A DNA stretch of 64,000 nucleotides, from IMG/VR virus record IMGVR_UViG_3300007171_000004, positions 224,001-288,000 of that record; one strand, given 5' to 3'. Position 1 is the first letter of the stretch; every line of letters begins with the position of its first letter. The notes under the pieces are model-generated. The model was not told the DNA's origin. It saw only the letters and a list, made by a program, of their open reading frames with translations, and did not search any database. Source of the DNA: a virus. Its lineage: Duplodnaviria; Caudoviricetes. Positions 27,011 through 55,100 of this stretch are shown here, in pieces. Made by a program: the position numbers and the translations under genes.

Positions 27011-27979
27011 ATGCCAAAGTTTGTGGATGATTTTGTTTCCGAAAGATTAAAAGATAAATCGTTCTATCCTGAGCTAAGTGAAAAAGAACGCAAGTCTATT
27101 GCATTCGCAATAGCATATAAAACATTAAATGAAAAAAAGCAAAAGAAAAATAAAAAGAAAAGCTTTTTTATTGGTGTTAATACAAGATACTCCGAACTCT
27201 TAAGATTATGTCGTCATTTAGATCATAAAGGTCAATATCGTACTGCTGATAAAATTGTAGAGGCTTTAAACCGTGGAGAATTCTGGATTGAGGATGATGG
27301 CTCCACTATATATGCAGATGGTGATGTTGGTGATTTGAATCATGCAATGGTAGCTGAACAAGAAATGATATCTAGGTTGGGTATTTATTTCGAAGATGAA
27401 ATCTACTCTATCGAAAATGCTAGAGAATTGTTTTATCAATCTATTAATGACGAAGGTGCTTATGGCCCTGATGGTATAGAAGATTATATTCAAGATCTTA
27501 AATCTGATTATGGAGATGATTGGGTTGATGAAGCTTCATTTGATCATTTTATTGTGTGGAATTCTACAAAACAAGCCCATAATCATCCTGCAATGTTAAT
27601 AGAGAGCCAAAAAACTTTAGAAGGATTTAAAGATCCTGTAACTTTTGCAATTGAAAACTATGGATGGATTAGAGCTGAGATTAATAGAAATTATGCAGCA
27701 TTTCAAACTAAAAATTTGAACAAGATGAATTTTGATAAAATCTTAGCATGTCTTCTTGGAGATTATCCTGAAGAGTCTAATATACAGCCAGATTATAAAA
27801 TTTCATTAGAAGTACAATCTCCAGTGGTTACATCTTTAAAATTTAATTATGATGAATTTAATTGGGATCATGTATGGGAAGAATTTAAAAGCTCTATTGG
27901 ATTAAAAGAGCCTGTTTCTGAACCTAATTTAGCTACTCCAAATATGCCTGAGTATTATCAAGGAAGAGAAGGCGATTAA
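27011..27979 (+). CDS. Hypothetical protein with internal LD..G.Y..AD.I helix and C-terminal YQGREGD
   Basis: Start moved to ATG 27011 after SD; LLRLCRHLDHKGQYRTADKI. Confidence 0.8.
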   Translation: MPKFVDDFVSERLKDKSFYPELSEKERKSIAFAIAYKTLNEKKQKKNKKKSFFIGVNTRYSELLRLCRHLDHKGQYRTADKIVEALNRGEFWIEDDGSTIYADGDVGDLNHAMVAEQEMISRLGIYFEDEIYSIENARELFYQSINDEGAYGPDGIEDYIQDLKSDYGDDWVDEASFDHFIVWNSTKQAHNHPAMLIESQKTLEGFKDPVTFAIENYGWIRAEINRNYAAFQTKNLNKMNFDKILACLLGDYPEESNIQPDYKISLEVQSPVVTSLKFNYDEFNWDHVWEEFKSSIGLKEPVSEPNLATPNMPEYYQGREGD

Positions 27980-29448
27980 TGACTAATTCCTTAGAACTAT
28001 TAAAACTTGCGGATTCATTAGATCGTCAAGGCTTTTATAGATTAGCACAAGAAGCCGAAGAATCAGCACAAGAACAAGCAACATCTCAACAAGAATTACA
28101 ACAAAATAATATTAATTTTTATGAAATGACTGGAAATACAGCTGAGTTATACAGTGCATATAATTATTTAAGACAACTTATTGGGCTTGGTCTTAATTCT
28201 AGATATTTTCAACAACTTATAACAACTTATAAATTAAATAATATTGATCAGATGATTGGTGTTTTTGCTAGATTAGGGAATACAAAAGCTGCTGATCTCT
28301 TAAAATCAATAAGTAATAATAAATTTTTAGCAGCTAGACAAAACAAATTATTTACTTATTTGAAAACATTTGAACCAGGAGCGCTTTTTACAGCTGATGA
28401 ATTGAAAATTCTTCAGAATGCTACAAAATATAATGCTCCTGCAATTGGGTCTGGTTTAAATACTATTGAAAGATTTAAAAATCTTTCTGGTATTTCACAA
28501 GAAGTTATTAACGCAAATCCAACTAAATTCAGAGATGTTTTAAGATTTATTGGAAATGGCCAAATCGAAGAAGCAGCAAATATTTTAAAAAGCATCGAAG
28601 GTTTAAATTCAAGTCAAGTGGATGCAATCTTATTTAATTCAAAAGCTATTCAAAGTGAAATAAAAGCTGCTGAAAATGTTTTAAAATTTGATCAAGTAGC
28701 CCTTCAAAAGGGTAATTCTGTATTCACAGCTTTAAGAGCTATGGCAGCAGAAATTCCCGTCATTGGTAAAGTAATTCAAGTTCTAGAATGGGGTATGTCA
28801 AAAGGACTTCCTATTCTTGGTATTATTGCTGGAGCTGTAGAAGTGGTTGCATATTCAAACCAACTTAAAAGTGCTCCAGAAGAAGAAAAAGCAGATATTA
28901 GAATGGACATTGCACAGGGAGTAATTAATATAATTGGTAATATTTTAATGCTTGTCCCAAATCCAATAGCACAATCAGCAGGTGGCATAATTCTTGGTTT
29001 AAATTTAGCTGCAGATGTAGTACAAGGTAAATCAAAAGATTGGATGGCACAAGCTGAAGGTTTCGATAATGCAGAGCAGATGAAACAAACAAAGCAAATT
29101 GCCGAACAAGATCTTTCTGTTGTTTCAAGCAATCCTGAAGTAACAAAAGCAATGGATTATCTAATCAAAAAAAATTGGGTGTATTTTGAATCCCCAGCTA
29201 GATATAAAAATGAAATTTCTCAAAAGTTAATGCCAAACAATGCTCTTGCAGATGTTGGTGGACTTTATGGTAGTGATAGAAATGCAAACTTTTGGAAGTG
29301 GTCTGGAAATACAAATTCTCCTGAATATTTAGAATTTGTTCAATCTCTGACTCAGTTGAAAAAGAAACTCTTTGATAGTTTTAGGCAACCTAGACAAATG
29401 ACTCAAAGAACTTCATGTAGAGCTAAAATTAAGCTAAAATATGCTTAA
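27979..29448 (+). CDS. Leader-bearing protein with hydrophobic helical hairpin (candidate ejection/membrane-inserting protein)
   Basis: N-terminal LLKLADSLDRQGFYRLAQ; hydrophobic GLPILGIIAGAVEVV and GVINIIGNILMLV..AGGIILGLNLAA. Confidence 0.6.
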   Translation: MTNSLELLKLADSLDRQGFYRLAQEAEESAQEQATSQQELQQNNINFYEMTGNTAELYSAYNYLRQLIGLGLNSRYFQQLITTYKLNNIDQMIGVFARLGNTKAADLLKSISNNKFLAARQNKLFTYLKTFEPGALFTADELKILQNATKYNAPAIGSGLNTIERFKNLSGISQEVINANPTKFRDVLRFIGNGQIEEAANILKSIEGLNSSQVDAILFNSKAIQSEIKAAENVLKFDQVALQKGNSVFTALRAMAAEIPVIGKVIQVLEWGMSKGLPILGIIAGAVEVVAYSNQLKSAPEEEKADIRMDIAQGVINIIGNILMLVPNPIAQSAGGIILGLNLAADVVQGKSKDWMAQAEGFDNAEQMKQTKQIAEQDLSVVSSNPEVTKAMDYLIKKNWVYFESPARYKNEISQKLMPNNALADVGGLYGSDRNANFWKWSGNTNSPEYLEFVQSLTQLKKKLFDSFRQPRQMTQRTSCRAKIKLKYA

Positions 29449-29485
29449 AATTGTATAAATAAAAATAAAAAAAGGAATTGATATT

Positions 29486-30387: not shown

Positions 30388-30420
30388 GTTTTATTCTACC
30401 ATCTATTATGATCATCTACA

Positions 30421-30456
30421 AAAAAATTACCCCAGCTTTTTTGCCGGGGTAATTTT
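30421..30456 (-). terminator. Intrinsic terminator downstream of dnaK
   Basis: AAAATTACCCC...GGGGTAATTTT with A-run on the plus strand (U-tract on minus). Confidence 0.75.
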
Positions 30457-30470
30457 CTTTCCGATGATTT

Positions 30471-32291
<1,821 letters not shown>

Positions 32292-32462: not shown

Positions 32463-33788
32463 ATGAGAGAAGTTTTTGCTAGTATCAATTATGTAATCAA
32501 CAAACTTGAAGAAAAGAATTTATTCAAGATTGCACAAGAAGGACATGATATCTTTGCAGCCGTTTATAGATTTGTTGGACAAGATGGCGAATTAGTAAGA
32601 CCTGATGATGATAAATCTGAGCAGTATTATGAGTCTGCAGTCCCTAGTAATATGTTTGAAAATGATCTATATAGCCCTATGGATAAAAATAAGCAAAGAA
32701 AGTGGCGTGTAAAGAGTGAAGTTCCTAGTGAATACGGAACAGCACCAGCATCTCCTGCATCTCCAAACGCAACAGAAACTCCAAGCGCAGAAACATTTAC
32801 TCCAGAAGCTCCAAGTGCAGGGCCATCAGTAGCTCCAGAAAGTGCATTGGTTACAATTACTGCACCTTCTTATAATGGTGGATCTGCAGGGACATCTTCT
32901 GAATCATCTTCTGACAATAGCGAAATCCGGGATCTCCAACATCATGAGTATTTTGATCCTCAAGAGGGAATTCCTATGATTGGAGAAAGATCCGAAGAAA
33001 GTAATTTTGGAACAAGTTCTTACGAGCCAACAAGTACTGGATTATTTGGTGAAAGCTCAAGTCCAAAAATGTTAGAAGAGCGTAGTATTTTTGATCGTGA
33101 AGAGAATGATGAAAATTATACAAACGAAGAAAAAATTGCCGAATTAGTATTTAAAAGATTGAAAGAAAAGAATTATAAAATTCTTTCAAATCCCACAGTA
33201 ATTGAAATGGCAAAAGATCCTAACTCAGGGTTAAAAGATCAATTAGCACACAATGGTTATTATTTAATTATTCCCGAAGGTGATGTAATCAATCTTGGTG
33301 TTTCAACAGATAGAAATACATATTTAAATAAAAAGAATGTCCTTCATAAAGCCAGGGGTAGATCTTCTGCATCTGCAAAAGAAGTTCTTTCTATGACCAA
33401 TACATTCATTACAAATCTTGAGAATTATGGTTTAAAGAGAGAAGCTGAAGCTATGCATGATGTATTTGTAAAAATTGCCAATGCATATGATCTTGTTAAT
33501 AGACCTGGCGTTTCTGTTCAAGCAAAGAAGTGGATTCAAGATAATGTAGCAAATATTGATGCTATGACAAATTTGCAACTTGTTAATATGATGGCAAATC
33601 TTCCATTAAATGTGCAAACAGAACTTAAGCAGATTATCACTAATTATAAGAATACACAAGGTTATAAGCAAAACAAGCCTATGGGATATCAACAACCTAA
33701 TCAGCAAATGTATCAACAGGGATATCAACAAGGTTATCAACAACAGAACATGTATCAAAATCAAGGCGGTATGGTTAGACCGCAATAA
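32463..33788 (+). CDS. Largely disordered protein with two leader-like helices and a Q/Y/G-rich tail
   Basis: VFASINYVINKLEEKNLFKIAQE and ITNLENYGLKREAEAMHDVFVKIA; P/S/E/T-rich middle; YQQG repeats. Confidence 0.8.
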   Translation: MREVFASINYVINKLEEKNLFKIAQEGHDIFAAVYRFVGQDGELVRPDDDKSEQYYESAVPSNMFENDLYSPMDKNKQRKWRVKSEVPSEYGTAPASPASPNATETPSAETFTPEAPSAGPSVAPESALVTITAPSYNGGSAGTSSESSSDNSEIRDLQHHEYFDPQEGIPMIGERSEESNFGTSSYEPTSTGLFGESSSPKMLEERSIFDREENDENYTNEEKIAELVFKRLKEKNYKILSNPTVIEMAKDPNSGLKDQLAHNGYYLIIPEGDVINLGVSTDRNTYLNKKNVLHKARGRSSASAKEVLSMTNTFITNLENYGLKREAEAMHDVFVKIANAYDLVNRPGVSVQAKKWIQDNVANIDAMTNLQLVNMMANLPLNVQTELKQIITNYKNTQGYKQNKPMGYQQPNQQMYQQGYQQGYQQQNMYQNQGGMVRPQ

Positions 33789-33789: not shown

Positions 33790-33820
33790 AAAAAAGGGGA
33801 GATTCATTCTCCCCTTTTTT
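33790..33820. terminator. Bidirectional intrinsic terminator
   Basis: AAAAAAGGGGAGA-TTCAT-TCTCCCCTTTTTT between convergent genes. Confidence 0.8.
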
Positions 33821-35147
33821 ATAATCCATAACGGGATTTTGTTAAGTTGTAATAAGCTAGAATTTCTGATGATGATAAAGCTCGGTTATAAATTCTTAAT
33901 TGCGATATGTTTCCTGCAAAAGTTTCTGAAATGTAACTATTACCGCCAACAAAAACATTATTTGTTGTGACTGGATTCGAATTTAAACTTGAAAGATTTT
34001 CAGTTGTAGAAGAATTATTTAGACTAAATGTTATTACTGGATTTGAAATTGTACCAGATACACTTATAGCTGCAAAATTCCATGTATTATTTGTTATAGA
34101 ACCCAAATTTTTATTTTGATAACTTCCAGCAGATAAACTAGTATAATAAGTTACTATATTATTATCAACTCTAAATAGAGAAATCAAATATCCTCCACCA
34201 GTACTAGAATAATTTGCATATAGTGTTGAATATTGTTTTGTTGAAGTTTGATAAAACCAACAAATTATAGTAACATTTATTTGAAGAGTTCTTAAATATG
34301 TATTGTTACCTAGACTTATATAATCATTTGTTCCATCAAAAACCCATGTTCCGCCGTTGCTTGAACTAAAAGATACACCGTTTGTTAAAGCTCCATTATT
34401 ATTATAAATTGAAAGATCATTTGCTAAAGTCGAAGAGGGCTCACTAAAACTATAAGGATTACCAGCATCTAGAACTAGTACAGCAGAATCGTTAGAGAAT
34501 GGGTAGCTATAAGTTACTTGTTTAAAATGAAGAAGATTTGTGGAAGATATAAATTTCTCTACAACGCCAACAATTAAAATTTCTTGAGCAATGGAATTAA
34601 CATTAACTTTAACCAATTTTCCAGCATTGACACCAGAACCGAAAGTGAGTAAATCTCCAGAATTAAAATCTATTTGTGTAGTGTAATCTAAACCATAATC
34701 ACCATGCAAAACTCTAACAAACTGATCTGTAATGAAAATATTGTTAGGTTGATTATAAACAGCCAATCCTCTACGTGAAATAACCATGTTTTCTGATGGA
34801 TTATAGGGCTTATTCAAAGATTCATTAAGATTATCATTCAAAGCTCTTTTTGTTGTTAAAACTTCATTATTTTCAGTGCGTATAAAACTGTAAGAGCTAT
34901 CAATATAACTTGAACCAATAACATCTGGAACTATTATTGTGTTTGCAGCAGAAGAATGATCAGATGTAGCAAAACCTAAGAACTTTCCAATTTTTTGAGA
35001 TAATGTTTTTTGGAATATTAAAGAATTATCAGCTTTAACCACTCTTCCATTATCATCTCTCATAAGTGCCATTCCAGCTTTAAAATCAACATCAACAAAG
35101 ATATCAACATTTTCTACTGCATTTGAAGTTACTGTAAAGATTGCCAT
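33819..35147 (-). CDS. LamG/concanavalin A-like lectin-domain virion protein, paralog 5
   Basis: Conserved ~210-aa N-domain plus LDAGNP...FDGTNDY...WNFAAIS...F.GNISQLRIYNRALS. Confidence 0.85.
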   Translation of the reverse strand: MAIFTVTSNAVENVDIFVDVDFKAGMALMRDDNGRVVKADNSLIFQKTLSQKIGKFLGFATSDHSSAANTIIVPDVIGSSYIDSSYSFIRTENNEVLTTKRALNDNLNESLNKPYNPSENMVISRRGLAVYNQPNNIFITDQFVRVLHGDYGLDYTTQIDFNSGDLLTFGSGVNAGKLVKVNVNSIAQEILIVGVVEKFISSTNLLHFKQVTYSYPFSNDSAVLVLDAGNPYSFSEPSSTLANDLSIYNNNGALTNGVSFSSSNGGTWVFDGTNDYISLGNNTYLRTLQINVTIICWFYQTSTKQYSTLYANYSSTGGGYLISLFRVDNNIVTYYTSLSAGSYQNKNLGSITNNTWNFAAISVSGTISNPVITFSLNNSSTTENLSSLNSNPVTTNNVFVGGNSYISETFAGNISQLRIYNRALSSSEILAYYNLTKSRYGL

Positions 35148-36445
35148 TATAAACCATACCTAGATTTTGTTAAGTTGTAATATGCCGAAATTTGATCGAG
35201 TGTAAGAGCCGTAAAGTAAATTCTCATTTCAGATAAATACATTCGAGCGTAAGAATGCGGGCTTGTTTTAACACTTCTAGCACCAATTCCAAGATCTTCA
35301 TTGTTTGAACCCATATCCCCAGTAGTTGCAACTATATTTGTCAAAGAGTTATTTATATAAGCCTTTTGATTTGTTTTATCATATGTTACAGTAATTAGTT
35401 TCCAAGCTGAAGAATCCATAGGCGCAATACTTCTCCATTGCCAAGCTGGAAGATAAGCATAATCGAATGAATTACTATAATATCCAGTTTCATATATATT
35501 TTCTTTATTTAGGATAATATTTCCACCTAAAGAATCAGTAGGAAATCCATCAATTTTCACCCATGTCATTGTAGTAAGTTGTCTTGTTCCTGGATTTAAG
35601 CTTGGGCTGTCTAAGACTCTTATGTAATCATTTGTTCCATCAAAATAAAAAGAACCGCCTCCAAAACTACTATAAGATACTCCATTATATAAAACTCCAT
35701 TGTTATTATTTGGGGTTAAATCATATACAGTGTTTCCAGAAATGTATGAATAAGGATTTGCAGCATCTATGGCAAATTGTAAGTTATTAGATTGAAATGT
35801 TACTAAATATGGGGCCTGTCTAAAATGAAGAAGATTAGAAGTTGAGATAAATTTTTCTACAATGCCAACAATTAAAACATCTGGGCCAATAGAATTCACA
35901 TTTATCTTTACAAGTTTTCCAGCATTTATTCCAGATCCAAAAGTTAGCAAATCTCCAGCATTAAAATCTATTTGTGCTGTTGAGTCTACTCCAAAATCTC
36001 CATGTAATACTCTTGAAAATTGATCCGTTATGAAGATGTTGTTTGGTTGATTGTATACTGCTAATCCTCTTCTAGATGTTGTTAATGTTTCTGAAGGATT
36101 ATAGATTTTGATGTTAGTTTCATCTTGGTTATCATTTAAGGCTCTTTTTGCTAATATTACTTCATTATTTTCAGTTCTAATATAATTGTAAGAATTGTCA
36201 ATATAACTAGATCCAATTATATCTGGAACAATGATTGTATTTGAAGCTGAGGAATGATCACTGGAAGCAAAACCCAAGAACTTGCCGATTTTTTGTTCAT
36301 TTGTTTTATAGAGTAGTAAACTATTATCAGCAGGAACAGCTCTACCGTTATCATCTCTCATTAACGCCATACCAGACTTGAAAGATGATGAATAGAATAT
36401 ATCTACATTTAATACTTCGTTAGATGTTACGGTGAAAATAGCCAT
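35147..36445 (-). CDS. LamG lectin-domain virion protein, paralog 4
   Basis: Same N-domain; IDAANP...FDGTNDY...WKLITVTYD...MRIYFTALT. Confidence 0.85.
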   Translation of the reverse strand: MAIFTVTSNEVLNVDIFYSSSFKSGMALMRDDNGRAVPADNSLLLYKTNEQKIGKFLGFASSDHSSASNTIIVPDIIGSSYIDNSYNYIRTENNEVILAKRALNDNQDETNIKIYNPSETLTTSRRGLAVYNQPNNIFITDQFSRVLHGDFGVDSTAQIDFNAGDLLTFGSGINAGKLVKINVNSIGPDVLIVGIVEKFISTSNLLHFRQAPYLVTFQSNNLQFAIDAANPYSYISGNTVYDLTPNNNNGVLYNGVSYSSFGGGSFYFDGTNDYIRVLDSPSLNPGTRQLTTMTWVKIDGFPTDSLGGNIILNKENIYETGYYSNSFDYAYLPAWQWRSIAPMDSSAWKLITVTYDKTNQKAYINNSLTNIVATTGDMGSNNEDLGIGARSVKTSPHSYARMYLSEMRIYFTALTLDQISAYYNLTKSRYGL

Positions 36446-44176: not shown

Positions 44177-45145
44177 TTATCTTACTGGAAAACCAGCCTG
44201 GTCTAGAATCTGTTGTCCTGTTGGGTAATAACTCTTACCCCAGAGGAAGTTGTTTGGATTAATAGTTGCTTCAAAACGATGAAACTTTGCATGTCCATCA
44301 GCAAATACATAATTAGAACCACCTGTATGACGACCTGGCTCCATGAACCGAATATGCAGTCCGCCATCAGCTGCAACGGATCTACATCCACCAGTACCAT
44401 TTTGTGCACTAGAATCAGATGGTCCACCCCAGCCCTCAGCTCCTTCTGCAGCAGCCTTAGTAATAGCAAAGATTGATCCTGACGCATCCGCAAAACTTTG
44501 TCCTGCCCATTGACCGCCAGAAACTGTACGCATTATGGCATTTGTTGGTCGGTGAGACTTGTTTCTTCGTTCAGTATTGAGTTGGCCAGTTGAACCTAAA
44601 AAGATACAATTTAAGTGATTAGTTGCTTCTGCAATGGCAATAACATCAGCTGGAGCATCAATTGCAGCGATAGGAACAACGTTTGGAGCATCTTGAGGGC
44701 CACGCTTACGAGGAAGAACAGCCGAATTAGGAACATAGGAAAGACGAGGAACCTGAGCTTCGCATCCAAGGGTATTTACATCTGTCCAAGGCATACAAGG
44801 AGGATTGTCTGGACCTACTCCACCGTTCTTATCAGATGGACATACCCAAACTTTGTCACTCTTGATATATGGCTGTACCATTGCAGAATAATGAATATAT
44901 CCACCAGCTGATCCGCCATTAGTCGTTGCGGTGTTGTTCTTGTACATGTATGCAGTCGGATAGGTTTCATCATAATCCTGAGTGTACATCATAAGACCAA
45001 TTCCAATTTGCTTCTCATTCGACAAACAACTTGCCGATCGGGCCTTCTCACGAGCCTGGGCAAACACTGGGAAGAGGATAGCTGCCAAAATCGCAATAAT
45101 AGCAATGACAACTAAGAGTTCAATTAAAGTAAAAGCTTTTTTCAT
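44177..45145 (-). CDS. Prepilin-type N-terminal cleavage/methylation protein with DUF1559 and H-X9-DG C-terminal motif
   Basis: [42 protein letters not shown]...MYTQDYDE; C-terminal [16 protein letters not shown]. Confidence 0.93.
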
Positions 45146-45884: not shown

Positions 45885-46244
45885 ATGAAAAGATATGCTG
45901 ACAAATTTCAAGATCAATTGCAAAATATGATCAATATTCTCGACCAATTCAATTCTCTTTATTCTGAAACAAGTAGATATGGAAATAAAGATGTTTCTGC
46001 ATTAGATGCTCAAGCAGAAATGTTACAATCTGAATTTTCAAGATTAATGAGATTATATATTGAAAGCAAATCTGGAGAAGTTACAAGAAGATATTTAGAT
46101 AGAGTAGATAGAGCTGATACACCAGGGCAATTAGATAGAATTAAAAGAAAAATGCAAACTGAAAAATTCCCTGTAGATCAAGAAGCTGTATTAAATGCCA
46201 TATCTGAAAAACTTAAATCAAGAGGATATGATGATGTGGTATAA
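45885..46244 (+). CDS. Hypothetical helical protein (MKRYA N-terminus)
   Basis: 119-aa ORF; its stop overlaps the next start (ATGTGGTATAA). Confidence 0.75.
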   Translation: MKRYADKFQDQLQNMINILDQFNSLYSETSRYGNKDVSALDAQAEMLQSEFSRLMRLYIESKSGEVTRRYLDRVDRADTPGQLDRIKRKMQTEKFPVDQEAVLNAISEKLKSRGYDDVV

Positions 46245-46797
46245 ACTTGCTGCTATAAGAGTCAATGACCAAGAAGTTCCAGAAGAAGATTTCCTTAAAA
46301 AATTTATCAATGTTGCTACTAATGTTAATAAACAACATTATTGGATAGTTAATGGCGAAAAGTATGCTCCACCAGAAAACTATGGACATAACTACACTGC
46401 CATGATGCTTAAATTACAACATGGTGTCTATCCAAATGATCCAGATTTTAATGAAACACCTATTGAATTTGTTGGAAGAGGAATTGGGAGCATGGCTAAT
46501 GGCGGAACAATAAGAGTTAGCCAGATGTTAGATGATGCTGATCTTTCTATATATGGACCTGTCAGCGATAATACTCTTGAAAACATACTAAAATTTATAT
46601 CCCCAGACTGTATAGGTCAATGGGAAATTCTTAATGTTGCTGGAAACCCAAATGGAAGAGGATTTGATTCTCTTAAACAAACAATCCAGAATCTTACATT
46701 AGGACTTAATCAAAACACAAAAGAAGAAATTGACACTGCTCCTATCAAAAGAGTTGACAACACTCCATCATTTTATAAAGGCAGATCTGGAGACTAA
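46234..46797 (+). CDS. MWYK-leader protein with C-terminal YKGRSGD
   Basis: MWYKLAA start after GAGG; ends TPSFYKGRSGD. Confidence 0.8.
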   Translation: MWYKLAAIRVNDQEVPEEDFLKKFINVATNVNKQHYWIVNGEKYAPPENYGHNYTAMMLKLQHGVYPNDPDFNETPIEFVGRGIGSMANGGTIRVSQMLDDADLSIYGPVSDNTLENILKFISPDCIGQWEILNVAGNPNGRGFDSLKQTIQNLTLGLNQNTKEEIDTAPIKRVDNTPSFYKGRSGD

Positions 46798-46821
46798 TTT
46801 TAGCCTCAAAATCATCTAATT

Positions 46822-47190
46822 TCACTCAGTTACACAATAAGATATACAAACAGTTGGCTCCCAGAAAGATTGCAAATATCGTACCTTTACAGAATTAACA
46901 TATCTAGTAGTGTCATTAGGAACAATTTTTGCTCTTACTAATAAATCTACAATAGGTTTTATCAAATTGTCAGAGTCGTGTTTCATCTTCCAATTCATAT
47001 CTGCCATAACTAAAATTTCTACATCAACTGGAAATGAATCAGCTGGCAACATAGATTCAACAATTATTGGTAAATTCTTATCTATCCATTCTCTATATTT
47101 TTTACTTTTAATTAATTTGCCATAAGCTACTGGAGTGTACATCTTATTTGCTGAAAATGGATGTGTAATAGTACAATACTTCTTAAGCAT
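46822..47190 (-). CDS. rusA: RusA-family Holliday junction resolvase
   Basis: PFSANKMY, SKKYREW, KHDSDNLIKPIVDLL, IVPNDT. Confidence 0.8.
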   Translation of the reverse strand: MLKKYCTITHPFSANKMYTPVAYGKLIKSKKYREWIDKNLPIIVESMLPADSFPVDVEILVMADMNWKMKHDSDNLIKPIVDLLVRAKIVPNDTTRYVNSVKVRYLQSFWEPTVCISYCVTE

Positions 47191-47238
47191 ATATTTCTTT
47201 TACAGGGATATAGGAGTAAAATCGGTAAAATTAAAATC

Positions 47239-48924
47239 ATGTGGTATCGAATATCTAATCAATTACAATTACCTGAAACTGATGTCCCTCAAAATCCTGT
47301 AGAACCAGAAGTCCAGGAAGAAGAGCAAGAGCAACCTCAGCTTTTAGAAACAGAAAAACCAACGCAAAGCTTATTTTTTAGTGAATGGGCTAAGGATCAT
47401 TATGTTCCAACTCAACCTGTTTATCATGGGACGACTCACGACTTTGACGAATTTCAAATTATCAACACTGGAGATAATTCTTTAGGTGATGGTTTCTATT
47501 TCACTAGTGAAGACAAAGAAGCTGAAAAATTCTATACAGGAAAAGGCGGAGATCAACTGCGACAAATTGATCGAATCGCCACAGATTTTGCTGATTCATA
47601 TTATGGCAACGATGATGAACTATTTGAATTGTTTGGTGATAAATATCCAGAATGTTTCCAAGATGGCGAAGTTAAAGATGCTTATGAATTAGGTGAAAAA
47701 ATTGGATCTGATCGAATTCTTGGAGGAAAACCTAAAGTAATTCCAGCTCATATTAGAATGAAAAATCCATTTGTCTTAACTCAAATGAATCCTAACTTTC
47801 CTTACAGCCCAACTATGTTTTATGATGATTTCCAAGAAGAAGAAATTCCAGAAGCTGATGGGGATGATGGATATGACCCTGAAAATAATGAATCGCCAGA
47901 AAAATTAATTATTGAAAAAGATGGAGAGAAAAAATATTCTTTCAAAACATTAATTCACAAACTCTATGATATTTTATTAGAATATTATGAAGATTATAAT
48001 GCTTATGAATTTATTAACCAAGTAATATTAGATAATGCAAACCCTGGTGCAGATATCAACGCAATGCATATTTTCCAATCTATAACAAATCAAACTGAAT
48101 ATTTCAAACATCAATATGAAGATGATTACCATAGCGAAATAGTAAAAAAACTTATGGAATCTTTAGGTTTTGACAGCATTATCCAAGACCCAAAGGCATT
48201 CTGGCCATCTAATGAATATGAACCAGGAACACAACATTATTTCTTATGGAAGCCTGAGAACATTAAACACGCTAGAGAAAATATTGAATTTAATCCTGAT
48301 AGCAGAAAAATTTATTCAGCCTATATGTTTAATCCAGAAGGTCAAGGTGTTTTAGATTTAGGCATCAAGCTAAAATATGACCCATCTAATTATGAAGCTA
48401 GAATTGAGAAAGAAAGAAATGACAAGAATTCTCACATGCTAGATATTGGAGCTTATATTAAAGGTACAAATATCAAACTAGGACAGATTGATTTATTTTG
48501 TGATAAATCAGTTCCACCTGAAGAAAGATATGTAGATGTTGAATTAGTTTTAGTCTATGATAATAATAAAAGTTTTAAACAACAACTAAGACAACAATAT
48601 AATCCACTTGAAATAGATGAATTTAGTGGATCAAGAGTTAAATGGGGTATTGGAGAATTTCTTTATAACGCTGCAAGAAAATTGATCCAAGAAAAAATGC
48701 CTGAAGTGAAATATATTGCTGGTAATATTCATAGTAAAGAAGCATTCAAAGCAAGAAATAAAGCGTTCGGTGATCCTTTAGAAATAAAAGATGTTAATAC
48801 AGACACTAATGTTTCTCAATTAGATGCTCAAAAACAAATTCCATATATGGTTTTTGATGAATATACAGAACAACCAGAATTTCGAACAGATGACGCATTT
48901 TGGGTAAAACATAATGTGGTATAA
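47239..48924 (+). CDS. MWYR-leader polyvalent protein: ADP-ribosyltransferase-like domain plus possible C-terminal GNAT
   Basis: PVYHGTTHDFDEF, LGDGFYFTS..EA..FY, VIPAHIRMKNPF, LGFDSII; C-terminal RVKWGIGEFLYNAA. Confidence 0.65.
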   Translation: MWYRISNQLQLPETDVPQNPVEPEVQEEEQEQPQLLETEKPTQSLFFSEWAKDHYVPTQPVYHGTTHDFDEFQIINTGDNSLGDGFYFTSEDKEAEKFYTGKGGDQLRQIDRIATDFADSYYGNDDELFELFGDKYPECFQDGEVKDAYELGEKIGSDRILGGKPKVIPAHIRMKNPFVLTQMNPNFPYSPTMFYDDFQEEEIPEADGDDGYDPENNESPEKLIIEKDGEKKYSFKTLIHKLYDILLEYYEDYNAYEFINQVILDNANPGADINAMHIFQSITNQTEYFKHQYEDDYHSEIVKKLMESLGFDSIIQDPKAFWPSNEYEPGTQHYFLWKPENIKHARENIEFNPDSRKIYSAYMFNPEGQGVLDLGIKLKYDPSNYEARIEKERNDKNSHMLDIGAYIKGTNIKLGQIDLFCDKSVPPEERYVDVELVLVYDNNKSFKQQLRQQYNPLEIDEFSGSRVKWGIGEFLYNAARKLIQEKMPEVKYIAGNIHSKEAFKARNKAFGDPLEIKDVNTDTNVSQLDAQKQIPYMVFDEYTEQPEFRTDDAFWVKHNVV

Positions 48925-49816
48925 ATTCGCTGCTCAAGGAATAATTCAACACCAAGTATCTGACCAAGAAATAGATGCGCTTGTAGATAGATCTCTTATT
49001 GACACTGGATCAACATATTTAATCAATCAATTCTCCCTAAGAGATGGATTGCTGGATTTATTCCCAAGCCTTAATAATGTCAAATTTCAAAGCCTACCTG
49101 ATGAATTTGGACTCTATAATATCACAACTCAAGAATTAATATTAGAAGATGAAATTGCAAAAGAAGATTTAGGCCTTTTTAAAACCAATTTACATCACGA
49201 ACTTCAACATGTAGCAGATCCAAATCTTAAAAGAAATCATGAATATATTAATAAAATAGCTGATGATGCAACTTTAGCTCTTATTATTGATATTCCTGAA
49301 GTTGATGAAGATACAGTTTTCCCAACATATGAAGAGACTGTAAACAAAATTTTCCTCAAATACATGAATAGAAAACCAACAGAATATGACACTCCATTCT
49401 TAGACAAAATTAAAAATAAATATTCAGAAGAACAATTCAATGATGTTATTAATAGAATTAAATCTGGAGATCATCCCTATTATAATTCTCCTATTGAAAA
49501 AGCAGCAAATTTAAAAGATTTCACAAGAATTTTCTCTGTAAGCAATCTATTAGGAATAAAAGATTTAATTTCTAAAAAACCATCATATACAATGGAAAAA
49601 CATATCAAGGTTATTAGCGATATCTTAAGATCTCCATCCTCAGATAAATTTAAAGCTGTACTTGGATTGTTAGAAATAAAATATCCAGAAGCTGAACAAA
49701 CTATTGACCCTCTGTTTATCTTAAATGCCAACACAAGCCCAAAATATGAAAAGCAATTTAAAAAACAATTGGGAAATATTATCAACGAATTACAAGAATT
49801 ATTAAAAGAGAACTAA
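48914..49816 (+). CDS. MWYK-leader protein with HExxH zinc metallopeptidase motif
   Basis: GLYN...LIL..., NLHHELQHVAD, later YYNSPIEK.A. Confidence 0.65.
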   Translation: MWYKFAAQGIIQHQVSDQEIDALVDRSLIDTGSTYLINQFSLRDGLLDLFPSLNNVKFQSLPDEFGLYNITTQELILEDEIAKEDLGLFKTNLHHELQHVADPNLKRNHEYINKIADDATLALIIDIPEVDEDTVFPTYEETVNKIFLKYMNRKPTEYDTPFLDKIKNKYSEEQFNDVINRIKSGDHPYYNSPIEKAANLKDFTRIFSVSNLLGIKDLISKKPSYTMEKHIKVISDILRSPSSDKFKAVLGLLEIKYPEAEQTIDPLFILNANTSPKYEKQFKKQLGNIINELQELLKEN

Positions 49817-49817
49817 C

Positions 49818-50327
49818 ATGTGGTACAAAAAAGCAATTCTTCTTACAGATATTGAAATCGAAATGGAACTTCTTCATAATGCAAAAACCACTGAAGATAT
49901 ACATAAGAATTACAGAAATCTATCTAAAAGACACCACCCTGATGTAAATCCTGATCCAGACTCTACTAAAAATTTTCAAAACATTCAAAATATTTATGAT
50001 GAAGTGAAAGATCAACCACTCTACTCAACTGAAGATTTTACAAGCAGAGAAATGACAGAAGATGATGTTAGAGATAATATAGAACTTCAAGATAATTTTC
50101 TAAATACAGATGAAGAAGCACTTAAAATGGGCATACTTCAATCTGTAGAAACATACTTCAATAATAATGTTCCAGATAATTATGACACACCTGATTTTGA
50201 AATGTATGAATCTTTAACCGAACAAATTTATAATCAAGTTAAAGATATTCAGCCAACACCATATGAAACAATTGCAAATCTAATTAATAATATGGCTGGA
50301 AACTACATTAGAGAAAATTATAGCTAA
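49818..50327 (+). CDS. MWYK-leader J-domain (DnaJ type III) protein
   Basis: EDIHKNYRNLSKRHHPDVNP...FQNIQNIYDEV with intact HPD (49935-49943). Confidence 0.85.
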   Translation: MWYKKAILLTDIEIEMELLHNAKTTEDIHKNYRNLSKRHHPDVNPDPDSTKNFQNIQNIYDEVKDQPLYSTEDFTSREMTEDDVRDNIELQDNFLNTDEEALKMGILQSVETYFNNNVPDNYDTPDFEMYESLTEQIYNQVKDIQPTPYETIANLINNMAGNYIRENYS

Positions 50328-50545
50328 TTCTTCTTCAAACTCTTAGCATATTTTAACATACTATCCACCTGAGCTTTTGATGGAATTTCAGGACTGTCTC
50401 TTCTATACATGTCATAAATTGTTTTCCGAAGATCTTTTGTTTTAGGATTTTTAAACAATATTGCAGCAGGTTCGTGGCATCCAATACAACGTTCCTTATA
50501 TTCAATCTTAGGATCTATTAACATTAAAAATAATATTAACTCCAC
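50324..50545 (-). CDS. Putative miniature c-type cytochrome
   Basis: Short hydrophobic N-terminus, CIGCH haem-attachment motif, candidate Met ligand (TIYDMY), C-terminal helix AQVDSMLKYAKSL. Confidence 0.5.
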   Translation of the reverse strand: MELILFLMLIDPKIEYKERCIGCHEPAAILFKNPKTKDLRKTIYDMYRRDSPEIPSKAQVDSMLKYAKSLKKN

Positions 50546-51141
50546 TGAACATCACACTCTTCTCTAATACAAAAATCTGCCAAAGCTTCTAACTGTAATA
50601 ACTTACCCTCAATATAATTTACATCAATTCCGCCACCGTATGTTCTGGGGCCGTCTTCATCAGGTCTAGTGAATTCTTCTAATATCCTAGAACCTTTAAC
50701 ACTTTCAATTTTCCTCAGTAATGCTAAAGGCGAAATAGAACCCACATCATCACTATTATCTATATTCAACAACTGGAAAATTGTGCGGGCATTCATATTT
50801 GACAATTGAACAGTATAAGAATCAGAAGGCATATGGGCAATACAACTTAAACTCATTACAACTTTACCATTTTTAACAATATTAAATTCTGGAAAAGCAC
50901 CACCCTCATCCATTACCAGATTACCAAACTGCCTGTACTCAGAAATCCAAAATGATAAAGGCTGATAACCATTCTTCTGTACATATTTATAAAAATAATA
51001 AGCCATATCATCATCATATTTATCAGCTAAGATTTTTCTTAAAGAACCATCAGGATCTTCATAAATACGTTCATGACAAAATTCATACAGGGTGTCATCA
51101 TTAACTTCTTTGCGCAAATTAGCACTAAATTCAATACTCAT
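50536..51141 (-). CDS. Hypothetical protein
   Basis: 201-aa acidic ORF. Confidence 0.75.
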   Translation of the reverse strand: MSIEFSANLRKEVNDDTLYEFCHERIYEDPDGSLRKILADKYDDDMAYYFYKYVQKNGYQPLSFWISEYRQFGNLVMDEGGAFPEFNIVKNGKVVMSLSCIAHMPSDSYTVQLSNMNARTIFQLLNIDNSDDVGSISPLALLRKIESVKGSRILEEFTRPDEDGPRTYGGGIDVNYIEGKLLQLEALADFCIREECDVQWS

Positions 51142-51239
51142 AATACTTTTTTTATAAAATTAATGTTAAAAATACCTTCAAGAGGATTTTTTAAAGATAT
51201 TCAGTAAAAATATGTTAATACCTCAAAAAGTAAAACATT

Positions 51240-51917
51240 ATGAATAAAAGACAAATCCTAGCATCATTAAATAATATAGCTTCCACACTTGATAAATTAA
51301 ATTTATTTCAAGAAGCTGATTCAATCACTCTAGTAATGAATAGATTGGCATCATCTGAATCAGATTATGATCAAAGGAGAAAGTATCAAGAACTTTTTGA
51401 TCAAAAATCTTTGTCAGAATTATTAAATGACTTAAAAAAAGTAATAGATGACATTAATATCAAATTAGAAAATGATGCAAAGACAAATTTAGAAAATAAA
51501 TTCAAAAAATTTAAATTAAATAATCCTGAAGCTACATATGAAGATTTTCAAAAAGCAAGTGTATTTAATAGACCAAGAATAGAATATAAAAATCCTATTG
51601 ATGAACTTGTAGCAAAATACGATATAAATGATAACTCAAGCGTAAATCAATTTAATCAATTTGAAAGCGAATTAATGAAAGAAATTGGTAGAGGCTTTTA
51701 TAGCTTTCCTTTTGAAGTTGATGGCCTGAGTTTTGATGGTACTAAATATAATTTAACTTTTCTATTTGACATGATTAGAAAAAAATTAAGAAATAATCCT
51801 GAAGTATTACCATTCAATAATGTACCTCTTCCGCCAACTGAAGGAGAAGATTCAGAAGAAGATGTTTCGAATTTATTAGAATGGGCTAGAAATCCTTATG
51901 AAAAGAGAACATTATGA
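51240..51917 (+). CDS. MNKRQI-leader hypothetical protein
   Basis: MNKRQILASLNNIASTLDKLNLFQEADSITLVMNRLA leader plus unique body. Confidence 0.8.
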   Translation: MNKRQILASLNNIASTLDKLNLFQEADSITLVMNRLASSESDYDQRRKYQELFDQKSLSELLNDLKKVIDDINIKLENDAKTNLENKFKKFKLNNPEATYEDFQKASVFNRPRIEYKNPIDELVAKYDINDNSSVNQFNQFESELMKEIGRGFYSFPFEVDGLSFDGTKYNLTFLFDMIRKKLRNNPEVLPFNNVPLPPTEGEDSEEDVSNLLEWARNPYEKRTL

Positions 51918-52435
51918 ATAAAAGACAAATTATTGCTTCATTAAATAATATTGCTAATGAACTGGATAATAATTATTTATATAAAGAAGCTAACACTCTC
52001 ACTAATATTATGATTAAAGTGGCAGATGAATTTAATATCGAACCAAATTCTCAACCTGTAAACAATTCGCCAGAACAATCAAATAATATTCAACAAAATC
52101 AACCTCAGCCTTTTATTAAATTTGATCTTCTTACAACAAAAGGAAATAGTCAATCCTTTACTAAAACAGAGGGATTTACGATTGGAAGACAGGGCGATAT
52201 AGTAACTCCACCCGAAATCAATACAGTTTCAAGACAACATTGTCACATAACAAGAAATAGATATGGGAAATGGGCAGTATATGACCTTGGTAGTAAAGCT
52301 GGCACAAAACTTAATAGAAATCAATTATCACCAAGGGTAGGGCAAGAATTAGAAATTCATGATGGTATATTTCTAGATCCTTGGGTTGTAATTGAAATCA
52401 TGGATATGTATCCTCTTCCAAGTGAAAAAGAATAA
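51914..52435 (+). CDS. MNKRQI-leader FHA-domain protein
   Basis: FTIGRQGD...TVSRQHCHI...VYDLGSKAGTKLN (G-R, S-R-x-H and D-x-x-S-x-x-G-T of FHA). Confidence 0.85.
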   Translation: MNKRQIIASLNNIANELDNNYLYKEANTLTNIMIKVADEFNIEPNSQPVNNSPEQSNNIQQNQPQPFIKFDLLTTKGNSQSFTKTEGFTIGRQGDIVTPPEINTVSRQHCHITRNRYGKWAVYDLGSKAGTKLNRNQLSPRVGQELEIHDGIFLDPWVVIEIMDMYPLPSEKE

Positions 52436-52451
52436 TAAAGAAAGAAAGCAA

Positions 52452-53012
52452 ATGAATAAAAGACAAATTTTAGCATCCCTTAATAAGATTGCAAATACAT
52501 TAGATAATACTGGAATGTATGTTGAAGCTAATTCTGTAACTAAAGTAATGACAAGATTAGCAGATGAATTTAATATCGAAACCCCAGCTGATGAAAGAGA
52601 AAATAAGAGACAAAGAATTATCACTGAAGCTTTAAATACTCAAGTCAGAAAAGATAATTTGCCTAAAACAATGCAATATTATATACCTGGTGGACCTTTA
52701 CTTACTATGAAAGAAATTGCAGATGCTATAATTGAGAAGGCAGATAGAGATGCAGATGCTCTTATTGCTATGCTTAATCGAGGAAAAATGGGTACTGAAG
52801 TAATTGTGCAAAATTCTTTAAAAATGTTGAGTAGTTTCAAAGAGCAATTATTAGATGTATTTAAAATGTATGGTATTCCTTCTGCTCCAGTTTTTTATTA
52901 TATTGACCAAGCACATAAACCAATTATTGCAAAGTTAAATCAAAAAATCAAAGAATACAACGAATACCATGATGAAGATTTGTTTAAAGATGAAGAAAAT
53001 AATCCTACCTAA
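52452..53012 (+). CDS. MNKRQI-leader hypothetical protein
   Basis: MNKRQILASLNKIANTLDNTGMYVEANSVTKVMTRLADEF; start moved to 52452. Confidence 0.8.
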   Translation: MNKRQILASLNKIANTLDNTGMYVEANSVTKVMTRLADEFNIETPADERENKRQRIITEALNTQVRKDNLPKTMQYYIPGGPLLTMKEIADAIIEKADRDADALIAMLNRGKMGTEVIVQNSLKMLSSFKEQLLDVFKMYGIPSAPVFYYIDQAHKPIIAKLNQKIKEYNEYHDEDLFKDEENNPT

Positions 53013-53244
53013 GATTATTCATAAAAGCATCCAATAATCTACAAATCATAATAAAACTAAACATAATATTAGAAAGATATAACCAAGCTAATTTATAACT
53101 CTTGCGATTCTCAATATGATATCGCCAGAAATAATAACCACAAATCCATAAACAAATTAAATACAATAATAATGATAAACCAAACTCAGATGTATAAGCA
53201 AAAAAAGAAAAAGCTAACATCTGAAAAATAAATATTAAAGACAT
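53005..53244 (-). CDS. Small multi-pass membrane protein
   Basis: Three hydrophobic stretches in 79 aa. Confidence 0.6.
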   Translation of the reverse strand: MSLIFIFQMLAFSFFAYTSEFGLSLLLYLICLWICGYYFWRYHIENRKSYKLAWLYLSNIMFSFIMICRLLDAFMNNLR

Positions 53245-53263
53245 ACAAATATTATAAAAGAAG

Positions 53264-53291
53264 AAAGAGAGATCTAAAGATCTCTCTTTTT
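53264..53291. terminator. Hairpin terminator
   Basis: AAAGAGAGATC-TAAA-GATCTCTCTTTT. Confidence 0.6.
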
Positions 53292-53306
53292 ATTTATTAA
53301 CCTAAA

Positions 53307-54323
53307 TTACACATGAGGAAACATTAACAATAACTTGCTTAAATTAAATGCTGCTCTATTTATTTTCATTTGGATCATTGTGGAATTATTTAAAAATTCC
53401 ATCATACTATCATAATATTCTTTACTAATTCTTTTACCTTTAAGAGCTGGAATAAGATCATGAGGATCAGTGTAAAGATTATCCACAATGTGTACTATAT
53501 CAATATAAGAAAACTTACCACCAGGAAGTGATTTGAATTTACTTTTCTTTTCATCCCTTAAGAAAAATTTTAAAGCATTTTCTCTAACTTCTTCATGACT
53601 TGCATCTGGATGGTCTTTAATATATTTCTCTACAAAATTCACTACAATTTTATTCTTTGGATTTTTCTTTATCAAAAATTCTATATGAGGATTTACAACT
53701 TTTGTTTTTAATAAGTTTACACCCGACTTATGCTCATCTTCTCTTGATTCTTCTAAAAAATACTCTACAGCAGATACACCCATGGATAAAGAAGGAATAT
53801 CAATATGACTACGAAGATCTATATGCATTAAAAAATTCAACATTTTAGAAATTGAATTAAATACTGCAAATAAATGAGTAGCTACACCATGCATACCACC
53901 AGAAGCTTTAAAATGCTCTTTAAATATTTTGACACGTAAAGACGAATCCTCAATACCCTCAAGCTGCTTACATACTTCCAATAAATTATATATGTCAGTA
54001 ATTATACCCATTAAACTAAATTGCTTCTTGATTAACAATTGAAGAGGCTTTTGTTGCTCAAAAATTTTAACAACATTAGATAAAATAGGAACTAATTCAT
54101 GAGAAACTTTCAATATCGAATTAGAGAGATTTTTAAATTTTTCAGAATCAGGATCTAAACCACCAAAATGATAAAGTTCATCTAATTTTTCTTTGCTGCC
54201 TTCTAAACCGGATAATAGTTTTTCAGGAACAATTTTAATTCTACCATCCCTTGACTCAACATCAGTCTCAGTAGAATTAAATCCAGATAAGTTTGATAAA
54301 TTTATTGCAATTCTATACCACAT
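53307..54323 (-). CDS. MWYR-leader hypothetical protein
   Basis: MWYRIAIN start; helical body with central hydrophobic segment. Confidence 0.8.
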   Translation of the reverse strand: MWYRIAINLSNLSGFNSTETDVESRDGRIKIVPEKLLSGLEGSKEKLDELYHFGGLDPDSEKFKNLSNSILKVSHELVPILSNVVKIFEQQKPLQLLIKKQFSLMGIITDIYNLLEVCKQLEGIEDSSLRVKIFKEHFKASGGMHGVATHLFAVFNSISKMLNFLMHIDLRSHIDIPSLSMGVSAVEYFLEESREDEHKSGVNLLKTKVVNPHIEFLIKKNPKNKIVVNFVEKYIKDHPDASHEEVRENALKFFLRDEKKSKFKSLPGGKFSYIDIVHIVDNLYTDPHDLIPALKGKRISKEYYDSMMEFLNNSTMIQMKINRAAFNLSKLLLMFPHV

Positions 54324-54431
54324 AAATACATAATTCTATATATTAAATATCAATCCCTAAATAATAAGATAAAAGGACTTAAATGCTTATAAAAGAATTA
54401 ATATAATAAGATCTACATAGGGATTAACAAT

Positions 54432-55100
54432 ATGAATAAAAAACAAATATTAGCTTCTTTGAATAATATAGCTAATAGACTTGATCAAAAATCTGAATAT
54501 GAACAGGCTGATAAGATTACTGGTTTAATGGTGAAAATATCCCAAATGCCCATCAAACAAGCTGGATTCATGGACGTTCTATCAACTATCGGAAGTGGAC
54601 TATATGAAGCTGGCGGAAGTGCTTTACAAGGATTTCAGGGAATTGGCTCAGCATTAGTATCAAACGCAGGAGGAATAGGAGGGGTATTAGCAGGGGGAAT
54701 AACAGGAGGACTAGGAGGAGCAGCAGGAACAGGAGCAGTTGTAAACAATTACCTAAATTCCAAAAACTATCAAAATCACCTTAAAGACAAAGCATACAGA
54801 GAAAAAGATAAAATGCGAGTATATGTTGAAGCTGAAACTCAAAAAATTATTACAGAAATAACAAACCTTATCAAAAATAACAAAAACATAACTCCAGAAG
54901 CTGCAAAACAACAAGCCATAAATAAAGCTCAATCTCATCCATATTTTCAACAAATTAACGCCTACTGCACAACTTATAATAAAATGAGCTTTACTGATAT
55001 TATTGCCACAAAATTCGATTCCTATGTTGCTAAATTATTACCACAGAAAAATATAGCAGTGAAACCTAATGTTTGGGTCCCACCTGTCGAAAAATATTAA
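54432..55100 (+). CDS. MNKKQI-leader protein with glycine-zipper-like hydrophobic segment
   Basis: MNKKQILASLNNIANRLDQKSEYEQADKITGLMVKISQ; GGIGGVLAGGITGGLGGAAGTGAVV. Confidence 0.75.
   Translation: MNKKQILASLNNIANRLDQKSEYEQADKITGLMVKISQMPIKQAGFMDVLSTIGSGLYEAGGSALQGFQGIGSALVSNAGGIGGVLAGGITGGLGGAAGTGAVVNNYLNSKNYQNHLKDKAYREKDKMRVYVEAETQKIITEITNLIKNNKNITPEAAKQQAINKAQSHPYFQQINAYCTTYNKMSFTDIIATKFDSYVAKLLPQKNIAVKPNVWVPPVEKY

Follow-up and report, generated by a model that had tools for sequence, protein, structure and literature searches.

A shared 37-residue leader on unrelated proteins of an uncultivated jumbo phage: a possible capsid-targeting propeptide

Background

When a phage injects proteins along with its DNA, these are the earliest of its products at work in the infected cell, and they are hard to recognise from sequence. 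The closest described system is that of phage T4, in which the internal proteins IPI-III carry a capsid targeting sequence (CTS) of ~10 residues that is removed by the prohead protease gp21. The T4 ADP-ribosyltransferase Alt, located in the prohead core, loses a 7-residue N-terminal propeptide to gp21 and is ejected into the host (PMC9026906); IPI* of the same phage blocks a host restriction enzyme (PMC3012670). The proteases of T4, phiKZ and SPN3US all cut after Glu (PMC9026906, PMC10052503). Here we describe a leader of 37 residues that opens four genes in a 64,000-nucleotide stretch of viral DNA (hereafter the window), which corresponds to bases 34399-98398 of a 129,429-bp IMG/VR virus record (G000; GC 32.6%), and we weigh the possibility that this leader is a propeptide of the same general kind as the T4 tags.

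Two more systems are relevant to the comparison. Herpesvirus assemblins cut after the Ala of (V/L/I)-X-A-S, and we know of no cargo-tag function for their substrates. The coat-binding domain of the P22 scaffold is C-terminal and uncleaved, and it has been used to load foreign cargo into P22 shells.

The leader and its payloads

One and the same 37-residue module opens the following four genes, two of which share a string of DNA at the junction of leader and payload:

51240..51917, plus strand: leader gene 1, 225 aa; leader 51240-51350, ending RLA with S next; payload acidic, unannotated
51914..52435, plus strand: leader gene 2, 173 aa; leader 51914-52024, ending KVA with D next; FHA domain at ~52178-52366
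52452..53012, plus strand: leader gene 3, 186 aa; leader 52452-52562, ending RLA with D next; helical payload
54432..55100, plus strand: leader gene 4, 222 aa; leader 54432-54542, ending KIS with Q next; basic payload with a GxxxG-rich, glycine-zipper-like stretch
52022..52042, plus strand: 21-nt string encoding ADEFNIE; second copy at 52560-52580

In the alignment of the four leaders, 16 of 41 columns are invariant, and identity to the copy of gene 52452 is 46-66%. The same module stands at the four starts for which an earlier note on this DNA had reported "near-identical" leaders, an observation that is confirmed well beyond chance, but at this level of identity that wording was too strong. 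A hidden Markov model (HMM) made from the four sequences scores them at E 1e-26 to 1e-28 among all open reading frames (ORFs) of the 129-kb record, with nothing else close. The first three genes form an operon in which the stop of gene 1 overlaps the start of gene 2 (ATGA); for the third gene, the ORF lister had placed the start at the TTG at 52392, and the conserved start is the ATG at 52452.

Beyond the leader, the proteins have FHA, GxxxG-rich, helical and acidic bodies. The FHA domain of the 51914 protein is recognised by Pfam (E 4.1e-11), the GxxxG-rich stretch of the 54432 protein was read straight from the sequence, and the payload of the 51240 protein has a near-identical metagenomic homolog (P0177). 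An all-against-all BLASTP comparison of the payloads yielded nothing better than E 0.002, over a Gly-rich stretch, which bears out the proposal that the payloads are unrelated. The terminal tripeptides listed by the earlier note, namely RLA, KVA, RLA and KIS in the four strong copies and RLA and KIA in two weaker ones (see below), are all present.

The 21-mer common to the 51914 and 52452 genes occurs exactly twice, at 52022 and 52560, and had been taken to suggest recent module shuffling. The string is real, but the deduction is weak: ADEFNI is a conserved linker variant that recurs in many family members with different payloads, the probability of seven identical codons by chance, given the same amino acids, is ~0.024, and the leaders themselves differ at synonymous sites. 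The 21-mer was accordingly rejected as proof of recent shuffling. The four leaders show 61-72% nucleotide identity and differ at synonymous sites; therefore, their conservation appears to act at the protein level, and neither recent gene conversion nor a DNA-level or RNA element was retained as the cause of leader identity.

Distribution and turnover

The profile of the four window leaders was run against 1.84 billion cluster-representative metagenomic proteins and matched 672 of them at E<=1e-3 and 300 at E<=1e-10. Among the best 150 matches, ~12 are long proteins with many tetratricopeptide repeats (TPRs) of the kinesin-light-chain type, which align to leader positions 6-29; the others contain a single leader, nearly always from residue 1. 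The leader is N-terminal in 239 of 250 fetched matches. Single-linkage clustering of BLASTP matches sorted 220 leader proteins, each with 40 or more residues beyond the leader, into 53 unrelated payload families, with payload lengths of 42-459 aa (median 143 aa) and mixed charge. Among 69 payload representatives, Pfam recognised only FHA, Lcl_C and zinc ribbons, and searches with Pfam and PHROGs of the leader proteins, these 69 representatives and ten further tagged proteins of a related contig, G002, returned almost nothing. Three metagenomic proteins (P0086, P0090 and P0190) have two leaders each, the second being internal and yet starting with Met-Asn; these may be fused neighbouring genes or may contain internal translation starts.

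In IMG/VR, a query with the leader alignment found 26 loci, and a query with the whole 52452 protein found nothing. Five large IMG/VR contigs (114-358 kb) each contain 4-15 leader-like copies, of which the strong ones stand together in a tandem cluster and the weak ones are scattered. None of 185,579 prokaryotic species genomes (GTDB) has the leader, no Pfam or PHROG family covers it, and we found no published description, in line with the earlier note, which named no such family. As judged from these searches, the leader is a new, very conserved, phage-restricted N-terminal domain with a wide range of unrelated bodies attached to it.

In G002, which is related to the record and largely syntenic with it (358,269 bp, 89% complete), eight clustered leader genes match the four of the window only over the leader. 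By this comparison, the set of cargo proteins has been replaced between the two genomes and the tag has been kept. Among the orthologs of the 52452 protein, the leader is >90% identical and identity of the body falls to 50-57%, so that the leader appears to be under stronger constraint than its cargo.

Anatomy and predicted fold of the leader

In a conservation profile built from 205 unique leaders, positions 1-6 (MNK[RK]QI) are 92-100% conserved, as are, at 90-100%, most others up to position 33. Position 35 is R or K in 97% and position 36 is L, I or V in 97%; position 37 is A in 74%, S in 13% and V in 10%, and the sequences with V at this position continue as [VM]-A-D. At position 38 the conservation collapses, and the leader gives way to a linker that is acidic and contains proline. 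The leader itself is charged (pI 8-10) and amphipathic, with N, D, E and K conserved throughout and polar and apolar residues alternating; it has no hydrophobic core of the Sec/Tat type (~10 or more residues after a basic N-region).

AlphaFold2, applied to the 52452 protein with its orthologs, predicts helices at residues 3-19 and 23-40 with a predicted local distance difference test score (pLDDT) of ~81, a dip at residues 41-50 and then a confident helical body. A Foldseek search of this model against viral predicted structures gave no match at E<=1e-3, and an ESM Atlas feature search gave no lead. The leader resembles the TPR_10/TPR_12 repeat (kinesin-light-chain type): leader residues 6-30 cover helix A of one repeat, the turn after it and the first part of helix B, and multi-repeat TPR proteins occur among the leader-profile matches. 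With hhalign, these residues align with a single TPR_10/12-type hairpin at 97% over 25 columns, a score that is biased upward since the TPR set was chosen for matching the leader. Pfam TPR_10 hits the leaders at E 0.018-0.07 (15.5 and 13.6 bits against a cut-off of 27.5), and two of the four window leaders have no match. Unlike TPR proteins, the leader is one hairpin and no array of three or more, the body of the 52452 protein is a different helical domain, and both the invariant N-terminal MNK[RK]QI and the basic-aliphatic-Ala end are foreign to TPRs. We read these predictions as a protein-binding helical hairpin fold rather than as membership of the TPR family. The earlier note had allowed for a match of the leader to a known stand-alone domain with another function; the resemblance to a single TPR hairpin, which lies below the Pfam threshold, does not overturn the idea of a capsid-loading tag but makes the fold a generic one.

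The head-enriched motif and the prohead protease

Left of the window, the record has three packaging and head genes, all encoded by the minus strand:

G000 ...1-3805, minus strand: prohead protease polyprotein, >1268 aa in the record; residues 54-242 match head maturation protease
G000 3886-6291, minus strand: portal, with a C-terminal DUF559/endonuclease-like domain
G000 16075-19290, minus strand: large terminase, with a LAGLIDADG_3 domain inside (intein or homing-endonuclease insertion)

The motif [KR][ILVT]A[QSA], taken from the leader ends after the sequences had been viewed, occurs 40 times in the proteins of the 129-kb record, compared with 11.4 +/- 3.3 in shuffled proteins, and 12 times in the first 60 residues of proteins, compared with 2.2 expected from the shuffles. 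Its density per 1000 residues is 3.39 in the head module vs 0.53 elsewhere in the record (Fisher 1.5e-8) and 3.99 vs 0.53 in G002 (Fisher 2e-13), i.e. it is ~7-fold denser in head-module proteins. Several positions of the motif are kept between the two genomes, namely, one at the N-terminus of the portal, two sites at its C-terminus and several in the protease protein; in 14 homologs of the ~1400-aa protease polyprotein the positions persist through swaps among K/R, I/L/V/T and S/A/Q, and one conserved site lies directly after the protease domain. The end of the leader, [RK][LIV][AS], matches this head-enriched motif, which we take as the putative cleavage motif.

The protease matches phrog_18299, head maturation protease, at E 6.7e-17; sequence searches against PDB and Pfam found nothing, and its class is assigned by fold search only, with T4 gp21 as the best PDB match (5jbl, probability 1.0), followed by the assemblins of Epstein-Barr virus (EBV), Kaposi's sarcoma-associated herpesvirus (KSHV), herpes simplex virus (HSV) and human cytomegalovirus (HCMV). 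On a model of moderate quality (mean pLDDT 65, core 70-93), the prohead protease of this phage is predicted to have the T4 gp21/assemblin fold (clan SH). An Ala-specific code for such a protease is plausible because the assemblins, its next-best fold matches, cut after Ala.

The protease is the N-terminal domain of a ~1400-aa polyprotein that is very abundant in metagenomes (283 matches; homologs P0254-P0373) and in which [KR]xA[QSA] sites are conserved at about residues 30, 299, 541, 606 and 968. This arrangement suggests a self-processing fusion of protease and scaffold.

A second tag class and the context of the locus

At least eight genes begin with MWY[KR]x[AS]:

46234, 47239, 48914 and 49818 (span 46234..50327), plus strand: genes with the MWY[KR]x[AS] start
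53307..54323, minus strand: MWYRIA gene, 338 aa, within the leader cluster; ortholog at the same position in G002
G000 6317-6694, minus strand, and 125621-128055, plus strand: further genes with this start

One such gene is located between the portal and the neighbouring 502-aa gene of the head block. The 47239 gene encodes an ART-PolyVal ADP-ribosyltransferase domain at 47416-47550 (E 1.6e-11), and its ortholog in G002 starts with MWYKLAQ; the 49818 gene encodes a J domain (Pfam). The MWY[KR]x[AS] start may be viewed as a second tag class. Its six residues close with the basic-x-Ala that also ends the long leader, and they bring to mind the T4 Alt propeptide. With two tag classes, both ending in basic-x-Ala, on a variable island of small proteins, the parallel with Alt is close.

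Promoter-like sites precede two of the leader genes:

54374..54398, plus strand: AGGA-N17-GAAT promoter-like site, with its first base 58 nt and its last base 33 nt ahead of the start of leader gene 4
51183-51208, plus strand: weaker AGGA-N18-TAAA site before leader gene 1

The strict form, AGGA-N18-GAA[TC], precedes three genes of the head block (the protease gene, a 302-aa gene and a 537-aa gene), and the loosened motif has 8 matches in the record against 2.8 expected. In G002, the strict form is neither enriched nor conserved. A test of an AAAGG[AT] box, picked post hoc and therefore exploratory only, gave p 0.002 in G002 and 0.11 in the record of the window.

The leader as a capsid-targeting propeptide

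Taken together, these data lead us to the tentative view, to which we would give slightly less than an even chance, that the leader is a capsid-targeting propeptide cut off by the prohead protease, i.e. an analogue of the T4 CTS that differs from it in sequence, size, fold and cleavage residue. The following sequence of events can be envisaged. The two amphipathic helices (~residues 3-19 and 23-37) would form a TPR-like hairpin, which would dock on a component of the prohead interior, for instance the inside of the capsid shell, the portal, the scaffold or the protease polyprotein. The protease of the gp21/assemblin fold would then cut after [RK]-[LIV]-[AS] at residues 35-37 and free the payload within the head, from which it would exit with the DNA at infection. 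In this way, one shared propeptide would serve a clade of jumbo phages, uncultivated and ~350 kb in genome size, to bring small proteins that change fast into the prohead during assembly. The earlier note had proposed a capsid-loading tag plus protease site for exchangeable cargo. The data support this in part: the leader is modular, the cargo is less constrained than the leader, the tripeptide fits the head-enriched motif, the protease has the predicted gp21/assemblin fold, and an ADP-ribosyltransferase with the second tag is encoded at the locus. Presence in the virion, docking to the prohead, cleavage at the motif and injection are steps that we infer.

The likeness to the T4 system, in which IPI-III and Alt are tagged, consists in a conserved N-terminal tag on otherwise unrelated, fast-evolving small proteins, a tag that ends in what would be the short cleavage motif of the protease, a protease with gp21 (5jbl) as its top structural match, and an ADP-ribosyltransferase with a 6-7-residue tag in the same system (PMC9026906, PMC3012670). 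The differences are also clear. By inspection, the T4 CTS has no sequence resemblance to the leader, which is a helix-turn-helix of 37 residues compared with the ~10 of T4; the putative cut is after Ala or Ser, with K or R before it, whereas that of T4 is after Glu in (L/I)-X-E; the major capsid protein here has 284 aa without a long propeptide (phrog_2522); and 53 payload families, whose packaging is conjectural, contrast with a handful of internal proteins in T4. Because there is no sequence resemblance and the leader ends in Ala or Ser, not in Glu, it is, as far as sequence goes, an analogue of the T4 CTS and not a member of its family.

The phiKZ-like giants are likewise jumbo phages with many internal head proteins, and in SPN3US a gp21-like protease removes N-terminal propeptides from ejection and inner-body proteins (the gp245 substrates) at a three-residue motif that recurs in head proteins (PMC10052503). 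The portal is processed there as well (PMC10052503), and the portal here has conserved N- and C-terminal motif sites. The propeptides of SPN3US, however, are of 20-254 residues, have no one shared sequence and end in Glu, whereas here one invariant leader is reused, and the present phage is unrelated to that group as far as tested (a leader-gene query found no relative in deposited phage genomes). With the herpesvirus assemblin sites, the putative code shares Ala at P1 and Ser at P1'; moreover, only gp21 matches the structure of the protease model better than assemblins do, and the protease here continues at its C-terminal end into a long, scaffold-like region that has sites within it. In contrast, P3 is basic here and hydrophobic in assemblin sites. 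Finally, the coat-binding helix-turn-helix of P22-type scaffolds resembles the predicted fold in being a helical hairpin of ~30-40 residues that would suffice to hold a protein in the procapsid; the difference is that the hairpin here is N-terminal and located on small non-scaffold proteins. The 562-aa scaffold-like protein of G002 has no match to the leader HMM.

Several observations weigh against the propeptide scenario. Since the motif was defined after the sequences had been seen, its enrichment is no blind test. The P1' residue in the leaders is often D, E or M (44%), whereas it is S, A or Q in head proteins, and ~10% of the leaders end in R-L-V-[VM]-A-D instead of the plain tripeptide. 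AlphaFold2 places the proposed site within helix 2 (residues 23-40), and proteases of the gp21 clan bind extended substrates. The leader cluster lies ~65 kb from the head module, beside small early-looking genes and the J-domain gene, and a promoter shared with head genes is weakly indicated and genome-specific, the AGGA site being suggestive in the record of the window only. In G002, two ~1000-aa proteins encoded away from the head module (74637-80511) have a hairpin-like copy at the C-terminus with no motif behind it, and the hairpin-like stretch within the 27011 gene likewise has no cleavage-type motif after it.

Some of these points fit a general docking or oligomerisation hairpin that has no link to the capsid and stays attached to the protein. 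It would let many of the small phage proteins bind each other or a single hub, which could be the phage-encoded DnaK/J-domain chaperone pair, a host complex or a membrane site. The alignment to a single kinesin-light-chain-type TPR hairpin, the weak TPR_10 matches, the C-terminal and internal copies without a cleavage motif and the position of the cluster, which is not part of the head module but adjoins a J-domain gene and lies 20 kb from the phage DnaK gene, would all be expected, although the alignment score is inflated by the choice of TPR proteins. This explanation, which we consider unlikely but far from negligible, leaves unaccounted for the near-invariant [RK]-[LIV]-[AS] exactly at the module boundary, the match of this tripeptide to a motif with a 7-fold enrichment in head proteins, and the fact that residues 1-6 hardly vary, as if the module had to be placed at the N-terminus.

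It could also be argued that the leader genes are ordinary tandem paralogs, which have kept their N-terminal domain while their C-terminal parts drifted too far apart to be recognised as related, without any exchange of modules. The genes do stand in tandem arrays, the identity of synonymous codons among the window leaders is slightly above expectation (e.g. 15 vs 10.8), as fits common descent, and many payloads are helical or disordered and could diverge fast. However, several plainly distinct folds are represented among the payloads (helical bundles, Zn ribbons, an FHA beta-sandwich, Lcl_C, a Gly-zipper-like stretch), they form 53 families spanning 42-459 aa, and the change in conservation at residues 37/38 is abrupt, not gradual, all of which makes this view improbable. 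Still less credence, indeed very little, is given to a nucleic-acid-level or other signal, such as an RNA element that is regulatory or acts in translation initiation, a signal for secretion or for the membrane, or a degron setting the timing of protein turnover. Codons 1-6 are almost invariant at the protein level and the first 15 nt are nearly identical in the four window genes, but beyond this stretch the leader varies at its synonymous positions, neither a consensus RNA structure nor a common upstream sequence is evident, and the charged, amphipathic leader has no Sec/Tat core.

If the leader is a packaging tag, injected proteins could be named directly from metagenomes. The 53 payload families, nearly all of them unannotated and including an FHA phosphothreonine reader, would then be candidates for anti-defence or host-takeover functions; an unrelated lineage of jumbo phages would have evolved tag-based cargo loading of the T4 kind on another structure and by another cleavage rule; and a phage protease of clan SH could use an assemblin-like Ala-Ser specificity. 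A broader scenario, somewhat less likely than not, is that a widespread, uncultivated jumbo-phage clade uses the 37-residue tag along with a minimal MWY[KR]xA tag, both read by an Ala-specific protease of the gp21/assemblin type, to load a hypervariable arsenal (at least dozens, probably hundreds of otherwise unannotated families) into the capsid for co-injection. In that case the tag would be a sequence key to the injected effectors of uncultured phages and a ready-made packaging tag for large capsids. Even if it is only a docking hairpin, the leader is an undescribed, very conserved and abundant phage-specific domain.

Weaker copies

Weaker versions of the leader had been proposed at 27979, at 32463 (two copies) and inside the 27011 gene. 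These stretches and one further N-terminal motif site are as follows:

32463..33788, plus strand: 441-aa protein with two copies, a short N-terminal hairpin at 32463-32534 ending KIA with Q next and an internal full-length copy at ~33381-33479 ending KIA with N next; Q/Y-rich tail
27979..29448, plus strand: 489-aa protein with a short leader-like N-terminus at 27979-28047 ending RLA with Q next; later segments hydrophobic and Gly-rich
27191..27274, plus strand: internal hairpin-like stretch of the 26999/27011-27979 gene
21180..23501, plus strand: 773-aa protein with KTA followed by A at residues 9-12; site kept in the G002 ortholog at 28% overall identity

With the HMM of 205 leaders, the 32463 protein scores E 2.2e-5 as a whole, from two stretches, so that here the proposal stands. 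The 27979 protein, with its motif site at residue 21, reaches E 0.11, and the stretch in the 27011 gene E 0.56 (0.065 with the four-leader HMM); neither is significant alone. Both nevertheless conform to a degenerate pattern, L..LA..LD..G.Y, of which a related genome has many N-terminal instances.

In G002, the minus-strand region 74637-80511 encodes two adjacent paralogs of ~950-1000 aa with a leader-like hairpin, KIAQKLD...Y.LADK, at the extreme C-terminus. Proteins of ~900-1000 aa with weak leader matches occur in two other contigs, G001 and G005, too.

Source genome and other features

CheckV estimates the completeness of the 129,429-bp record at 36%. Relative to the record, G002 has 66% identity in the portal and 58% in the protease; beside its protease gene are encoded the 562-aa scaffold-like protein, a 217-aa protein and the 284-aa major head protein (phrog_2522 match, E 5e-68). 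Because of the head and packaging genes and the synteny with the 358,269-bp G002, the record is a fragment, and the window a piece, of a tailed, uncultivated jumbo phage of ~350 kb. Among deposited phages (50,697 records), no relative was found by blastn with 50000-56000 of the window or by tblastn with the 52452 protein (186 aa). PF01165 is absent from the five records examined, and membership in a published phage clade that encodes bS21 was rejected on this ground.

Between the head module and the replication genes, the record encodes two sigma-70-family factors with regions 2 and 4 (G000 20904-21455 and 24659-25450, both on the minus strand). A full-length DnaK of 605 aa is encoded at 30471-32288 of the window (minus strand); it shares ~62% identity with DnaK genes in entries labelled as phages of Enterococcus, Listeria and Staphylococcus, where these genes are possibly host DNA; the J-domain protein is encoded separately, at 49818-50327 (plus strand). 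The product of the gene at 44177-45145 (minus strand) resembles type IV pilins and combines a DUF1559 domain with a methylation motif at the N-terminus. The DUF1559-type pilin family is, we presume, typical of Planctomycetota and related phyla and may hint at the host.

Five tandem paralogs of ~430-440 aa occupy 33819-40342 of the window (minus strand). Their N-terminal ~215 residues match the 217-aa gene that adjoins the major head protein gene in G002, and their C-terminal half is a Laminin_G_3 lectin-type domain (Pfam E 7e-16); they could be variable capsid-decoration or adhesin proteins.

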